NCBI GenBank assembly: GCA_964016885.1 | Contig: OZ024741.1 | Location: forward strand, 227,602,001-227,666,000 | Direction of reading: 5' to 3' | Length of the DNA: 64,000 bases | Source: Eledone cirrhosa | Taxonomy: Eukaryota | Shown here: positions 12,213 to 20,161 of the stretch, piece after piece | Layout: every line of letters starts with the position of its first letter | Numbering within the stretch: the stretch's first letter is position 1 | The notes under the pieces: model-generated | Told to the model about the DNA's origin: nothing | The model's input: only the letters and a program-made list of their open reading frames with translations | Database searches by the model: none | Translations under genes and position numbers: made by a program

Positions 12213-12870
12213 TATGAAAGACGTAAAACAAAAAAATTATAAAAATTAACTTACTTACTGAAATTTCACTCCAACTAATTAGTTTCTGAAAGGGAATAAA
12301 TATGGTTTCCGAATGGAACAACATGGAGAAATTCTTTCGTCATCATGGAAGTCTAATCTCAGCTAAGTTCCCAGGCAATGCGTGGACACAGGGAACATAT
12401 ACAAAAATAATTCAGTAGATGGAAAAAAGCAAAGCGTGGACTAAGTTCCACGACATTGAAAAAATCACTGCCTACCTGGTCGATGGCAAATTCAAAAGAA
12501 TCAATCACGTGACATCGAGGTTAATCCGTGAGGAGTGGTGTGTTAATAATCCTCACTGATTAACCTCAATGTCACGTGATTGATTCTTTTGAATTTGTCA
12601 CCGACCAAATAGGCAGTGATTTTTTCAATGTCTTGGAACTTAGTCCACGCTTTACTTTTTCCATCCACTGAATTATTTTTGTATAAGTTCCCTGTGTCTA
12701 CGCATTGCCTGGGAACTTAGCTGAGAATAGTCTTCCCTGATGACGAAAGGATTTCTCCATAGTTGTTCCATTCGGAAACCATGTTTATTCCCTTTCAGAA
12801 ACTAATTAGTTGGAGTGACATTTTAGTAAGTAAGTTAATTTTCATAATTTTCTTATTTTACGTCTTTCAT
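12213..12870. repeat. Long hairpin, ~320 bp arms, 15 nt loop gtggtgtgttaataa (second copy at 18000-18655)
   Basis: Arms are near-perfect reverse complements around 12535-12549. Confidence 0.95.
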
Positions 12871-13622
12871 ATATATATATATATATATATATATATATAT
12901 ATATATATATATATATATATATATATATATATATATATACATATATATATATATATATATATATATATATATATATATATATATATATATATATACATAT
13001 ATATATATATAGTATAAAAGAGAAAACACAGGTAAATATTAAGAGAAGGATTTTATCCAGGTATTTACGACCGTTTCATTGGTAAGTGCAACTTTATATT
13101 CCTATACTGCAAATATCAGCCACTCAATTATAATTGTTGTTCACAGTCCAAATTTTCAAAATAGTAAGTTGCTCTTGAAATAATTCTTAATATATAGAGA
13201 AAAACATTTATTTGGAATTGTATTTACTAGTATAGAGAGAGAGGAATCAGAAGGTGAGGGGACAGACGGAATAGTATAGAGAGAGAAGAAGGGGGAAGAG
13301 GTAGCAGGTAGAGTGACAGACTGAGATGGAGGGAGGGGTAGAGGTGCAAGGATTCTCTGGTCAGTTTTGATAGCAGACTTCATGTCGTGGAATGTAGTGA
13401 GTTAAAGAGAATTAAATTGATCATAGTGGGAGGGATGGATAGAGAGGGAGAGAGAGGGAGAGAGAGAGGAGGGAGATATAAAGAGATAAATATATATATA
13501 TATATATATATATATATATATATATATATATATATATATATAAAATAAAGATAAAATAATAATGACAAAAATAAAAGCAAAGAAGGGGGTGAGAAAGAAG
13601 AAAAGAAAAGATAACCAAGAAA

Positions 13623-14330
13623 GTTACTCTACTACGCTTAACATAGCATACCACATAGCTAGTAGCAATAAAAGAAAAATTAATTCTTACTTCCAACAAA
13701 CTAAATCACAACAGGCGATAAACCTTCATAATAACATTATATCAATTAACCCTAATAACAATAGTAATAATAGTAATAGCACTAGTGTAAGTAATAACGC
13801 TGGGAACATCAACCCCCATAACTATAATCCTATAGCTACCATCCGGATTTCTACACAACATAATATCCGGCAGACTAACCCAGAATAATTGTAACTGTAG
13901 ATAAAATAGAACCTGCCCTTTAGATAAAAAAATGCTTAATCAAGGATATAATATACTCATGCACGGTCACAACTAGCAACTCTTCTGAAATCTATATAGG
14001 CTCTACTTCAAACTGCTTCAAAACTAGATACAATTCGCACCTCCACTCTTTCAAAAAACACAGTTTAGCCAACTCCACTTCACTATCTAGCTACATAAAC
14101 TATCTAAAAACTAAAAATAAATCTTATACACTTAAATGGGAAGTGATAGGTAACGCGACATCGTACAAACCACCTAATACATTTTGTAACCTCTGTCTAC
14201 TAGAGACCCATACTATTATCTTCTCAAACCGTAACCTCCTTAATAAAAAATCAGAAGTGTTCGCGTCTTGCCAGCACCGCTTCCGACTCTCCTTCCAAAA
14301 CTTTAAACCCAATATATAACAATGTCAGAC
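13623..14330 (+). pseudogene. Naiad-type PLE 3' fragment: linker plus GIY-YIG endonuclease
   Basis: SYSTTLNI..; IYSCTVTTSNSSEIYIGSTSNCFKTRYNSH..STSLSSY..LKWEVI..CNLCLLE..LLNKKSEVFASCQH. Confidence 0.85.
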
Positions 14331-16644: not shown

Positions 16645-17175
16645 ATGAATGTAGATATGGTGTATTCGGTAATACACTGTATGCTTAATTAAAAGCATTT
16701 TGAAGACCTTACGCTATTGTTATAAAGTAGTGACTATGTCACTTACTTCTTTTTTCAACATTCAAAGGGAGCTCAGCTGACAGATCTCTGTTTCATACTG
16801 TTGGTATTCCTCAGAGCTTAGCACTCTTTTTGTTTGTTGAAAATTATGAATGTTGGATTCTTATAGAATTCCAGTAATAATGAGGAACTGATTATACAGA
16901 GCGGTTGCCGGTCCAGCAAAAATTGAAAACTAGAATTGGTGCTTTGAAATAGCGGTATATATGAAGGTATATATAGTGTATTTGGTAATACACTGTATGC
17001 TTAATTAAAAGCATTGCTCCTTTTGTTTGTTAAAAAAAGAAGTAAGTGACATAGTCACTACTTTAAAACAATAGCGTAAGGTCTTAAAAATGCTTTTAAT
17101 TAAGCATACAGTGTATTACCAAATACACCATATATACATTCATATATACATCGCTATTTCAGAGGACCAATTCTA
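16645..17175. mobile_element. pLTR-like repeat with direct and inverted partial copies, flanked by (TA)n
   Basis: 16645-16770 is inverted versus 17015-17145; 16950-17015 directly repeats 16645-16700; related to 1290-1400. Confidence 0.75.
16771..16822 (-). ncRNA. Type I hammerhead ribozyme, canonical core
   Basis: agct-CTGAGGA-atac(caaca)gtat-GAAA-cagagatctg-TC-agct; GUC triplet. Confidence 0.85.
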
Positions 17176-17444
17176 ATATATATATATATATATATATATA
17201 TATATATATATATATATATATATATATATATATATATATATATATTGTAACCATAGACTCAAAGAGAAGTTTTCGCACTACAAATCAAACCCTTAACCTC
17301 TTACTACCAACTGACAAAATACATATACTTAAACTTTATACCCTCTTGTATCTAAACCCTTTTAATTACCCACAAAACCAATGCATATATCCCTCGCTTC
17401 TCCCTCTTCTATTTCTTCGTTTTCTTCCTTCCTTCCCTCCCCTT

Positions 17445-20161
17445 CTTGGCTATCTTTTCTTTTCTTCTTTCTCACCCCCTTCTTTGCATTTATTTTTGTC
17501 ATTATTATATCTCCCTCCTCTCTCTCTCCCTCTCTATCCATCCCGGCCACTATGATCAATTTAATTCTCTTTATCTCACTACATTCCACGACATGAAGTC
17601 TGCTATCAAAACTGACCAGAGAATCCTTGCACCTCTACCCCTCCCTACATCTCAGTCTGTCACTCTACCTGCTACCTCTTCCCCCTTCTTCTCTCTCTAT
17701 ACTATTCCGTCTGTCCCCTCACCTTCTGATTCCTCTCTCTCTATACTAGTAAATACAATTCCAAATAAATGTTTTTCTCTATATATTAAGAATTATTTCA
17801 AGAGCAACTTACTATTTTGAAAATTTGGACTGTGAACAACAATTATAATTGAGTGGCTGCTATTTGCAGTATAGGAATATAAAGTTGCACTTACCAATGA
17901 AACGGTCGTAAATACCTGGATAAAATCCTTCTCTTAATGCTTACCTGTGTTTTCTCTTTTATACTATATATATATATATATATATATATATATATATATA
18001 TGAAAGACGTAAAATAAGAAAATTATGAAAATTAACTTACTTACTAAAATGTCACTCCAACTAATTAGTTTCTGAAAGGGAATAAACATGGTTTCCAAAT
18101 GGAACAACTATGGAGAAATCCTTTCGTCATCAGGGAAGTCTATTCTCAGCTAAGTTCCCAGGCAATGCGTGGACACAGGGAACTTATACAAAAATAATTC
18201 AGTGGATGGAAAAAAGTAAAGCGTGGACTAAGTTCCAAGACATTGAAAAAATCACTGCCTACTTGGTCGGTGGCAAATTCAAAAGAATCAATCACGTGAC
18301 ATCGAGGTTAATCAGTGAGGAGTGGTGTGTTAATAATCCTCACTGATTAACCTCAATGTCACGTGATTGATTCTTTTGAATTTGTCACCGACCAAATAGG
18401 CAGTGATTTTTTCAATGTCTTGGAACTTAGTCCACGCTTTGCTTTTTTCCATCCACTGAATTATTTTTGTATAAGTTCCCTGTGTCCACGCATTGCCTGG
18501 GAACTTAGCTGAGAATAGACTTCCCTGATGACGAAAGGATTTCTCCATAGTTGTTCCATTCGGAAACCATGTTTATTCCCTTTCAGAAACTAATTAGTTG
18601 GAGTGAAATTTTAGTAAGTTAATTTTTATAATTTTCTTATTTTACGTCTTTCATATTATTGTTCTGCATCCCCTTGCATTGAACCACAAAGTTACTAAGA
18701 CAAAACCTATATATTTGCTAGCATAGGTATGCATCTGTATATATATGTTGGTAGATATACTAATTCTTTATATATATATATATATTAGAAAATACGAAAA
18801 GCAGTAGAAAATGATGATAGGATTTTCTCATAGAATAACAGCAAAACATTCTTTTAAATTAATTTATAGTACCGGTTTCAGCCGATAAACATTTCGACTT
18901 CTTCATACTAGAGGAAATATGATAAAAAGTTTATAATAAAATTAAGGTGTATATTAATTAGAAGGGGTTATTGAACATAGTTTACATATATATATAAAAC
19001 TAACATTTTCGTTTCTCCCTTCCTTGGTGGTTTGGTGGTAGTTGCAGTTAAATAGCTGTTACTGTCACTGTTATTCATATATATATATATATATATATAT
19101 ATATATATCGTTCTTCCTCTCACATACACACGTACACACACTCACGTACACCTACACACATACACAAACACCACCTTCAGCCTTCCCCGCTTCGACCCCC
19201 CGCCTCCCTCTCCCAACTCCACCCGCCACCACCCTTACACGCCTCACACCCTTACACGCCTCACACCACTTGTTCATCTTATAGTTTATTCTTATGTTTA
19301 TTTTTACGTTTATTTTTATTTTTATTTGTTCTCCTTCCCCCCTTTTCTCTAAATGTATTTCCATACACCCTCGGAACTCTCTTCCTAACCTATTTACTCC
19401 TGAAGAAGGGCTTATGTCTGAAACACCCCCCCCCCACACTCTCAAGAGCGTGAACTTAATAAACCTTTATTTGTTTGTCTCTCTGTTGTGTTCCCGTCTA
19501 AATTTGCACTATACAATACACGCTTACACGGCTTCCACACCACCTTGGATACCACCTTTACTACCGGCTCTCAACCCCGATTTAATCCGCCGTGACCACC
19601 CTCTGAACTTCCCCATACTCCCCCACAACATTTTCTTTGCTTGTTACTTTTTCCTATTTTTTCCTTTTTTCCTATTTGCATTATTTATTTATTTATTACT
19701 GTATTTTTTCTGCTTTTGAATTTTAGTTTATGTTTTTTCCATGATATCCTGTGTTCATCTCTGATTACGATTTTTTTGCTTTTGTTTTTTTTTGTCCCTG
19801 CTTTCCTGTGAATACTTTCCCCTCACGCTATTTTTTTTATTTTTTTTTTATGTTTGATTTTCCCTCCCCCGTTTCTATCTACCCCTTCTCCCTTACCTCC
19901 GTGCCCCCACCCCGCATCACCCCCTCCCGCTTTTACTCCTCGCCCACCATGCCCAGCCTGAGATATTTTCTCCACCAACTCCACACAGCCTCAAAATCCC
20001 CCCCTCCTCCCAAACTGCAATATCCCCTCGGCCATCCAACTCTTCTACCTTCTCTTCGCCAAAACCCGGCATTCCAACCACATGCATTTCCTCAGCCGCT
20101 GGCTCCACCTCCACCACACCCCCCTTGGCTTCCGACTAAACTACCACACCCTCTCCACCCA
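17445..20161. repeat. Right arm of inverted duplication; ends abruptly inside the Neptune ORF N-terminus
   Basis: Reverse complement of 10560-13622 with small indels. Confidence 0.9.

Follow-up and report, generated by a model that had tools for sequence, protein, structure and literature searches.

The window analysed here is a stretch of 64,000 nucleotides from Eledone cirrhosa (contig OZ024741.1, positions 227,602,001 to 227,666,000), which contains an inverted duplication of about 3 kb. Its left arm (10586..13621, - strand) comprises a nest of Penelope-like element (PLE) fragments, TA runs and the 5' part of an RT element, and its right arm (17443..20150, + strand) stops some 200 nt inside the ORF of the RT element. 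The duplication is centred on 13621-17443, shows 43 substitutions over 1937 aligned flank columns and runs at both ends into differing sequence, the left arm reaching 1.4 kb further than the right. A hairpin lies in each of the two arms, namely hairpin A (12214-12870) and hairpin B (18000-18654), and in both of them paired inverted arms enclose a non-palindromic spacer. Hairpin A consists of arm AL (12214..12534, - strand), likely a 5'-truncated PLE end with its sense on the - strand, an asymmetric 15-nt loop (12535..12549, + strand) and arm AR (12550..12870, + strand), which terminates at a (TA)n run. Hairpin B consists of arm BL (18000..18321, - strand), adjoining the (TA)n at 17965-18000, a 15-nt loop (18322..18336, + strand) in the same strand orientation as in A, and arm BR (18337..18654, + strand), with a 4-bp deletion near 18620. 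On one side only, each hairpin is prolonged to a TA run, by a tail-like extension of AL (12100..12215, - strand) and by an extension of BR (18653..18768, + strand) up to the (TA)n at 18769-18784. The computed folds reach -315 kcal/mol for A and -366 kcal/mol for B, for which 0 of 20 shuffles were equally stable, and the arms differ at 21 of 320 sites in A (6.6%) against 7 of 318 in B (2.2%). Neither deletion nor amplification is seen at the loop.

The left outer arm is continued by a broken PLE-type element with RT and a C-terminal endonuclease (9136..10912, - strand), which has 649 relatives with a best identity of 62% and upstream of which a hammerhead-like core is found (11310-11334). The start of a 5'-truncated PLE (13622..14319, + strand) coincides with the inner end of the same outer arm, and its GIY-YIG frame (13924-14316) is 38% identical to the endonuclease at 37034-37441. 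The RT and GIY-YIG frames of these neighbours score below Pfam cut-offs but have strong relatives; RT and GIY-YIG also make up the informative ORF matches in the window, where none of the 78 non-simple ORFs of at least 90 aa matched a Rep, telomere-resolvase or similar family at E<=0.01. The window is free of N and spans TA runs of 130-160 bp as well as a 5.8-kb TGG array, a continuity that suggests long-read assembly.

Regarding orientation, the window contains exactly two occurrences of the 15-nt loop, both on the + strand, and the loop differs from its own reverse complement at 11 of 15 positions. The strongest marker of the inverted phase is the one-sided extension, 12100-12215 being the reverse complement of 18653-18768 over 116 bp with 0 differences. 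In the four-arm alignment, three markers follow the inverted phase (12241, 12265 and 12430, at 295, 271 and 105 bp from the loop) and three follow the direct phase (12475, 12486 and 12516, at 60, 49 and 19 bp, with partners in A at 12609, 12598 and 12568), while the two arms of one hairpin agree against the other hairpin at 0 sites. The direct-phase block is single, contiguous and bounded within the arms, with both switch points in the same 45-bp marker interval; a switch anywhere from 60 to 104 bp from the loop yields the identical sequence, so that the turned core measures 135-223 bp. Were B the turned copy, this core would span 18262-18396 at least and 18218..18440 at most, with switch intervals at 18218-18262 and 18396-18440, the equivalent in A being 12475-12609 and 12431..12653, respectively. 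The spacer is thereby reverse-complemented in place relative to its flanks, its length unchanged. If the order were random, all three direct markers would lie inside the three inverted ones with P = 1/20, a test that by itself reaches only P = 0.05, and an independent second switch point would fall in the same 45-bp interval with a chance of ~0.14. As far as the assembled sequence goes, same-facing loops in oppositely facing hairpins are confirmed. The preliminary description had placed the hairpins in a large inverted duplication, with the loop and three inner markers in the same orientation in both, a flipped centre of ~140-230 bp and a switch between ~12430 and ~12475; all of this stands, the four-arm alignment recovering all three inner markers, with 12430 inverted and 12475 direct. 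It had also reported inverted outer markers, two of the three being noted, and had missed 12241 and the 116-bp extension. Other origins of the pattern were set aside: convergence by point mutation needs ~17 parallel changes (11 loop positions plus three markers on two arms), two independent insertions in the same orientation are ruled out by the inversion of the one-sided extension and of all flanks, and mis-joined alleles are unlikely, the two ends of the duplication leading into different sequence.

As for its origin, the hairpin likely arose when the end of a Penelope-like retrotransposon was inserted twice, head to head, into (TA)n. Its arms meet head to head across the 15 nt, their sense being read from the hammerhead-like core, and TA runs bound each unit at both ends. 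A layout with one arm at (TA)n and the other carried to (TA)n by a 78-113-bp extension is found in 6 of 17 census rows, these six being A, B and four other fold-back units in the window; the one-sided extension measures 113-116 bp at A/B and 78-102 bp in the other window units. The layout of a large RT/GIY-YIG element (33005-38543) matches that of the hairpin units. The hairpin element is 5'-truncated and does not itself carry an RT or endonuclease ORF. With a core motif taken to represent the hammerhead, six hammerhead-like cores were found in the window versus a shuffle mean of 0.11. Such a core with stem II is present in three of the four arms, i.e. AR (12737-12779), BL (18091-18133) and BR (18525-18567), and is lost in AL. 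Folding of the region is no more stable than that of shuffles (z 0.06 to 1.4), and no hammerhead appeared among the Rfam matches for 1-20700 and 18337-18790; the putative identification of a hammerhead in the arms is thus weak. As described in PMC8557442, PLE copies can lie adjacent, inverted and 5'-truncated, with one-sided tails and (TA)n targets; the likeness to the inverted insertions of that report and of PMC11167929 extends to the head-to-head arrangement and to a hammerhead-like core near the 3' end, putative here. Unlike them, the present unit lacks an RT/endonuclease ORF and has a tail of ~115 bp, compared with 30-40 bp in the PLEs of both reports (PMC8557442; PMC11167929). Besides, a microRNA or structured-RNA gene was considered and rejected, Rfam miRNA matches over the cores being far under gathering scores and generic to stems, as was a protein-coding role for the 86-aa frame at 18086-18343, which has only a weak, sub-cut-off match to DotA (E 0.039) and runs antisense to the likely element.

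Private substitutions are distributed very unevenly among the four arms, with a skew of 13:2:1:0 (P ~1.5e-5). AL bears 13 of them plus one indel, and B a single one against ~7 expected (P = 0.007), which gives the latter a consensus-like appearance. Three private substitutions of A lie inside the core (12476, 12483 and 12527); within 60 bp of the loop, AL has three and AR none. Because the private substitutions of AL continue into the core, the likelihood ratio is ~90 against a late turn in A, and B is likely, judging from these sequences, the copy that turned. The smaller difference between the arms of B favours B as well, although the flanks, with a 62%-identical paralogue as reference, show changes in both lineages (5 A-derived and 3 B-derived among 19 sites, plus two CpG losses in B). 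The skew is left unaccounted for by one flip and hints at further exchange among three arms, namely AR, BL and BR. At the adjacent sites 12475/12476, the four arms read CC, TT, CT and TT, the two-site state of BL being found nowhere else. RNA editing or a deaminase was rejected as the source of the AL excess, its 13 changes being mixed (8 transitions of four kinds and 5 transversions), and a single long conversion tract in B (106-270 bp from the loop) is insufficient, covering 6 of the 13 AL substitutions and leaving 7:0:0:0 outside. Neither reading frame nor base composition of the loop gives a rule for the ancestral orientation, because the copy that owns the spacer varies between fold-back units, being the tailed one in 16346/48304 and the untailed one in 33005-38543. 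The likely PLE origin, the evidence for B as the turned copy and the 13:2:1:0 skew were absent from the preliminary description.

On balance, the core was probably turned by one exchange between the arms, likely in B, within a hairpin that likely began as an inverted PLE double insertion. Two 5'-truncated copies of a PLE end would have entered (TA)n head to head, one retaining a tail of ~115 bp, and at least six differences would have accumulated between the arms. The inverted duplication of the ~3 kb around the hairpin, itself visible in the sequence, would have come next. The 320-bp arms of one copy may then have paired out of register, a reciprocal exchange 60-104 bp from the loop turning the loop and the three inner markers and producing the phase switch that is observed. 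Further patchy arm-to-arm conversion likely keeps the B arms closer than the A arms. A crossover and an inter-strand template switch would have the same outcome, and the sequence would fit either; exchange between arms implies no function. Both routes to spacer inversion between inverted repeats are documented in PMC8604942, PMC5453318 and PMC8794818, and inversion of this kind is already on record in yeast, primates, rRNA and plastids. No loop flip within an inverted PLE insertion was encountered in the literature searched, where subscription journals are largely missing. Of the two mechanisms put forward in the preliminary description, recombination between arms fits the shared 45-bp switch interval, the conserved loop length and the outcome documented elsewhere; the other, in which a hairpin intermediate is resolved in the manner of hairpin-ended replicons, is not supported, the hairpin being internal and flanked by (TA)n and retroelement fragments, with no Rep or resolvase match among the 78 ORFs.

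It is unlikely that B (or A) is in truth an exact inverted mate whose core was mis-phased as four near-identical arms confused the graph or the consensus caller. In length, the core roughly equals a short read, k-mers of up to 45 nt cannot separate the two states of B, and B resembles a consensus by its deficit of private substitutions. Nanopore base quality is reported to fall in fold-back DNA (PMC7671332) and short-read assemblies are known to have difficulty with PLE inverted structures (PMC8557442). In a simple polishing simulation (single-end, error-free reads, one haplotype), none of the 36 runs with an unturned truth restored the true loop, a false flip in B stayed unchanged in 5 of 6 runs with 100-nt reads and, with A truly unturned, the false flip survived 3 of 18 runs. 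The observed state was however kept in 18 of 18 simulated runs when true, and survived 0 of 12 runs with 150-250-nt reads and B truly unturned, reads of 150 and 250 nt altering sites 18217 and 18441 in 12 of 12 runs and pushing the switch beyond 105 bp. The absence of N and the spanned TA runs and TGG array, suggestive of long reads, also speak against such an error, as does the two-site state of BL at 12475/12476, which simple vote-mixing would not yield. Rather unlikely is ectopic gene conversion in direct orientation, by which one near-palindromic core was copied over the other with no flip at all. The resulting sequence would be identical, A and B align directly with 22 substitutions over 653 columns, the uneven private changes point to exchange among AR, BL and BR, and non-crossover conversion far outnumbers inversion in the human Y palindrome described in PMC3723533. 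Conversion nonetheless requires that two tract ends, independent of each other, fall in the same 45-bp interval on either side (~0.14), and the cores differ, the event having to predate the private changes of A at 12476, 12483 and 12527.

That the core was turned during retrotransposition is improbable. The whole 9.1-20.2-kb block would then be one Penelope-driven insertion, the outer duplication being a single head-to-head PLE insertion of a long read-through RNA, and RT, on meeting the 320-bp RNA stem, would jump to the sister cDNA and then return. At its inner end (13621), the left outer arm adjoins a PLE start, 5'-truncated and on the opposite strand, a junction of the same type as 36447/36448; the right outer arm stops inside a PLE ORF; and PAc initiates reverse transcription within its ORF on both target strands (PMC11167929). 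Yet two switches between templates of opposite polarity are needed, with no direct report for PLEs in the literature searched, the 1.4-kb excess of the left arm is far beyond a tail, the right arm does not end at a (TA)n run, and the mutation skew is likewise left unexplained. Only if tied to the retrotransposition step itself would the flip gain greater weight: in an inverted PLE insertion, both cDNAs would be made side by side and could serve as templates for one another, which would offer a direct clue to how PLE inverted structures, as yet unexplained, arise. Poxvirus and Borrelia are, like AAV, hairpin-ended replicons with FLIP/FLOP isomers. Nicking and resolving a covalently closed hairpin end of that type, or opening a hairpin-capped break after cruciform cleavage, is highly improbable here. 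The arms are able to extrude a very stable hairpin and the product is alike in form to the AAV ITR FLIP/FLOP, with the inner part of the palindrome reverse-complemented and the outer part unchanged (PMC7671332). Unlike the AAV ITR, the hairpin is non-terminal, with continuous sequence on both sides, and shows no sign of a programmed nick site. Its loop is free of deletion or amplification; the window ORFs offer no Rep or resolvase, a trans-acting enzyme elsewhere being possible. Because the outer duplication is centred on 13621-17443, the hairpin is not a fold-back end. The hairpin-ended-replicon model is largely refuted by the internal position.

Under the favoured exchange between arms, the flipped loop is likely one more case of an ordinary and well-documented small inversion between inverted repeats, set in likely retrotransposon debris that is non-coding and without sign of function. 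The arms are ~300-fold smaller than those of sex-chromosome palindromes. In these palindromes arm identity is >99.9%, compared with 93-98% here, where no genes are present. Conversion between their arms is accompanied by rare inversion of the spacer (PMC3723533), and the likeness lies in one inversion and in one copy whose arms look homogenised (B at 2.2% vs. A at 6.6%). Ripley-model template-switch inversions share with the present case a loop reverse-complemented in place between paired arms, with its length kept, and arm markers within the switch points that change phase together with the loop (PMC5453318, PMC8604942 and PMC8794818). The cases of these reports are short, with yeast arms of about 10-16 bp around 2-5-bp spacers and rRNA loops of 4-8 nt, unlike the arms of 320 bp and the turned piece of 135-223 bp seen here in two copies compared within one assembly. 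Plastid hairpin inversions and inverted-repeat flip-flop likewise result in two loop orientations through recombination of inverted arms (PMC12928735), but the present locus is nuclear and made of non-coding retroelement debris, coexisting isomers at one locus not being in evidence. Its value is modest, as a natural four-arm record in which imperfect arms map the switch to 45 bp and in which 320-bp arms are intermediate in scale, longer than in the short template-switch cases and shorter than in the large palindromes of the cited papers. Regarding assembly practice, caution is called for, as a mis-oriented loop was never corrected by simulated short-read polishing. The uneven spread of mutations points to continuing exchange among PLE-made hairpins, and hairpin-rich genomes would permit the rates of flip and conversion to be counted.

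When the four arms of the fold-backs A (12214-12870) and B (18000-18654), i.e. the left and right arms AL, AR, BL and BR, were aligned, each read in loop direction, the outer three markers, 295, 271 and 105 bp away from the loop, showed inverted phase (AL=BR, AR=BL) and the inner three, 60, 49 and 19 bp away, direct phase (AL=BL, AR=BR). The window has two occurrences of the loop, each on the + strand, and the 116-bp extension beyond AL matches, without a difference, the reverse-complemented extension beyond BR; flanks, extension and outer stem are thus inverted and the core, namely the loop and inner arm parts, is not. 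The preliminary description, which had reported inverted outer markers around a loop and inner markers of common orientation, was essentially right. Reversing B's loop with any 60 to 104 bp per side yields an identical sequence, and these equivalent switch positions give a core of 135-223 bp. Paired inverted arms surround a non-palindromic spacer that is reversed in place with its length kept. This turned core is real in the assembly and probably in the genome. Both hairpins lie inside an outer inverted duplication (10586-13621 vs. 17443-20150 by masked self-comparison of the window), whose flanks diverge by 43 substitutions over 1937 aligned columns (2.2%), in AT-rich, microsatellite-dense DNA of animal type with zero N.

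That the turned core arose in assembly or consensus building is rather unlikely. B turned and B unturned are inseparable with k-mers of up to 45 nt and separable from 46 nt, and fold-back DNA lowers nanopore quality according to the available text of PMC7671332. Polishing was simulated by majority from error-free single-end reads of 100, 150 or 250 nt (six seeds per setting). With the observed sequence as truth, nothing changed in 18/18 runs; with B truly unturned, the loop was restored in 0/18 runs and 100-nt reads kept the false flip in place in 5/6, but 150- and 250-nt reads altered 18217 and 18441 in 12/12, shifting the false switch outward from the observed place. When A was instead the truly unturned copy, 3/18 runs left the observed draft as it was. 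On these simulated outcomes, a polishing artefact appears disfavoured.

Regarding mechanism, we lean towards a single arm-to-arm exchange, by crossover or template switch and likely in B, as what turned the core. Crossover or inter-strand template switching between inverted arms would reverse the spacer in place, and both leave the same trace here. As far as the available parts of these sources go, such reversal is described in primates, yeast and rRNA (PMC5453318, PMC8604942, PMC8794818) and spacer inversion between arms is summarised for plastid hairpins (PMC12928735), conversion being frequent and inversion rare in a Y palindrome (PMC3723533); the turned core is one more example of an established process, in likely debris of a Penelope-like element (PLE). 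Both switch points fall inside a single 45-bp interval, as would follow from a reciprocal exchange, whereas direct-orientation conversion between A and B, which we regard as unlikely, needs two independent tract ends to share that interval (~14% chance). Recombination between arms, as initially proposed, fits this shared interval; the accompanying proposal, hairpin resolution as in hairpin-ended replicons, lacks support. The latter is highly improbable: the hairpin is internal rather than terminal, the centre of the outer duplication is elsewhere, and 0/78 window ORFs (those of 162 frames >=90 aa passing a complexity filter) match a Rep or resolvase family in Pfam; AAV FLIP/FLOP, with its similar end product (PMC7671332, in the text available), is alike in outcome only.

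The outer duplication could also be a PLE head-to-head insertion, the flip being made by a reverse transcriptase (RT) using sister cDNA. At 13621/13622, the left outer arm meets, at its inner end, a 5'-truncated GIY-YIG PLE that begins there on the other strand, a junction resembling the PLE junction 36447/36448, and the right outer arm stops at 20150, ~200 nt into the ORF of a PLE-type RT element. However, the outer arm ends differ by 1.4 kb and two polarity switches are required, which makes this reading quite improbable; a literature search, judged mostly from listed entries, found no report of such a flip. Under the arm-to-arm exchange, B is the likelier turned copy, since substitutions private to AL extend into the core, and a late turn of A would have placed those on AR instead (likelihood ratio of ~90 against such a turn), and since B's arms differ at 7/318 sites vs. 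21/320 for A's; an early turn in A is also conceivable.

Private substitutions number 13 in AL, 2 in AR, 1 in BL and 0 in BR (P about 1.5e-5 for such skew), their total of 16 in 640 being in line with flank divergence (Fisher P = 0.65). Flank mutations appear to have arisen in both lineages, judging by 5 A-derived, 3 B-derived and 11 uninformative changes among 19 sites compared with a 62%-identical paralogue; B shows 2 CpG losses. In a three-copy control within the 33-38-kb element, the split is 4:1:3 plus one three-state site. The skew is unaccounted for by a single flip, which is thus the minimal history, the whole being probably more complex. The likeliest reading is that AR, BL and BR exchanged sequence repeatedly and in patches while AL took no part, or that AL was replaced by sequence from a further copy of the family; consensus mixing is also possible. 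One long conversion tract in B is insufficient, accounting for only 6/13 AL substitutions.

A fold-back census of the window (17 rows, with some units split over several rows) yielded a recurring layout, one arm adjoining (TA)n and the other running on 78-113 bp before (TA)n, in A, B, three copies of a second family (aligned at 16343-16461, 48304-48411 and 48944-49110) and 62086-62255; this layout is shared by 33005-34990 / 36448-38543, a large inverted repeat with RT and endonuclease frames inside. In the portions available, PLE insertions are described as targeting (TA)n, often carrying a tail on just one side, and having an inverted copy, itself 5'-truncated, joined to their 5' end (PMC8557442), the tail being traced to two internal reverse-transcription start sites just downstream of a hammerhead motif (PMC11167929). 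A hammerhead-like core with a 4-bp stem II lies ~130 nt inward from the short end in AR, BL and BR and is lost from AL; the search pattern matched 6 times in the window (mean of 0.11 and maximum of 3 over 100 shuffles). The hairpin is graded only a likely PLE inverted insertion, because the hairpin region and flanking window sequence gave no Rfam hammerhead match, the hammerhead-like segment folds no better than shuffles, the A/B tail is three times as long as published PLE tails, and neither RT nor endonuclease is encoded in the unit itself. Frames near the hairpins gave weak RT and GIY-YIG matches in Pfam, below cut-off. For the RT at 9650-10309, 649 relatives reach E<=0.001, and named relatives of one window RT come from rays, snail and coral. 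The available text of a retrozyme preprint (10.64898/2026.07.22.740005) holds nothing on inversions. At 12779-12870 and equivalents, the hammerhead-like core is followed directly by an ATG, from which a short hydrophobic frame extends into the tail, possibly the 5' start of the parent ORF; in AL plus tail, this frame has 53 codons and has lost its ATG.

Besides, the near-complete Penelope-type element at 33005-38543 (-) bears RT and GIY-YIG in broken frames, an 86-bp one-sided tail, TA runs at either end and, next to it across the junction 36447/36448, an inverted copy truncated at its 5' end (arms 1.8% apart). Other broken retroelements are one with RT and a C-terminal endonuclease-like frame (2750-5330, -), a non-LTR RT (41377-43780, +; RVT_1 E 2.5e-12) and, at 44821-46700 (+), one that is related to the 9136-10912 element and contains a GIY-YIG frame. 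The second fold-back family (16343-16538, 48304-48492 and 48868-49110) has identical arms within each copy (0 of 50-53 sites differ), the copies differing from one another; the loop is in phase with the tail, i.e. unflipped, in the first two, and the spacer of the third is an 18-bp tandem triplication. The hairpin at 62086-62255 is TA-anchored, with an 80-bp arm and a 102-bp extension on one side, and 49978-50037 is a perfect 60-bp palindrome without spacer. At 16640-17148, TA runs enclose nested repeats, both inverted and direct, which are related to 1261-1371 and include a hammerhead-like core at 16790-16814 (-). A TA-anchored fragment has a second, partly inverted copy (8216-8488 vs. 16069-16287), and 16180-16260 folds in a hammerhead-like manner (z -1.9). 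Degenerate (TGG)n arrays of extreme strand skew occupy 20678-26511 (5.8 kb) and 50977-52980 (2.0 kb). Finally, self-comparison revealed a dispersed ~190-230-bp repeat family, SINE-like in size, with at least 11 copies (1925-2114, 26830-27060, 28120-28244, 29969-30153, 42535-42649, 44035-44118, 50083-50291, 53535-53793, 56022-56234, 57400-57597 and 58242-58464).
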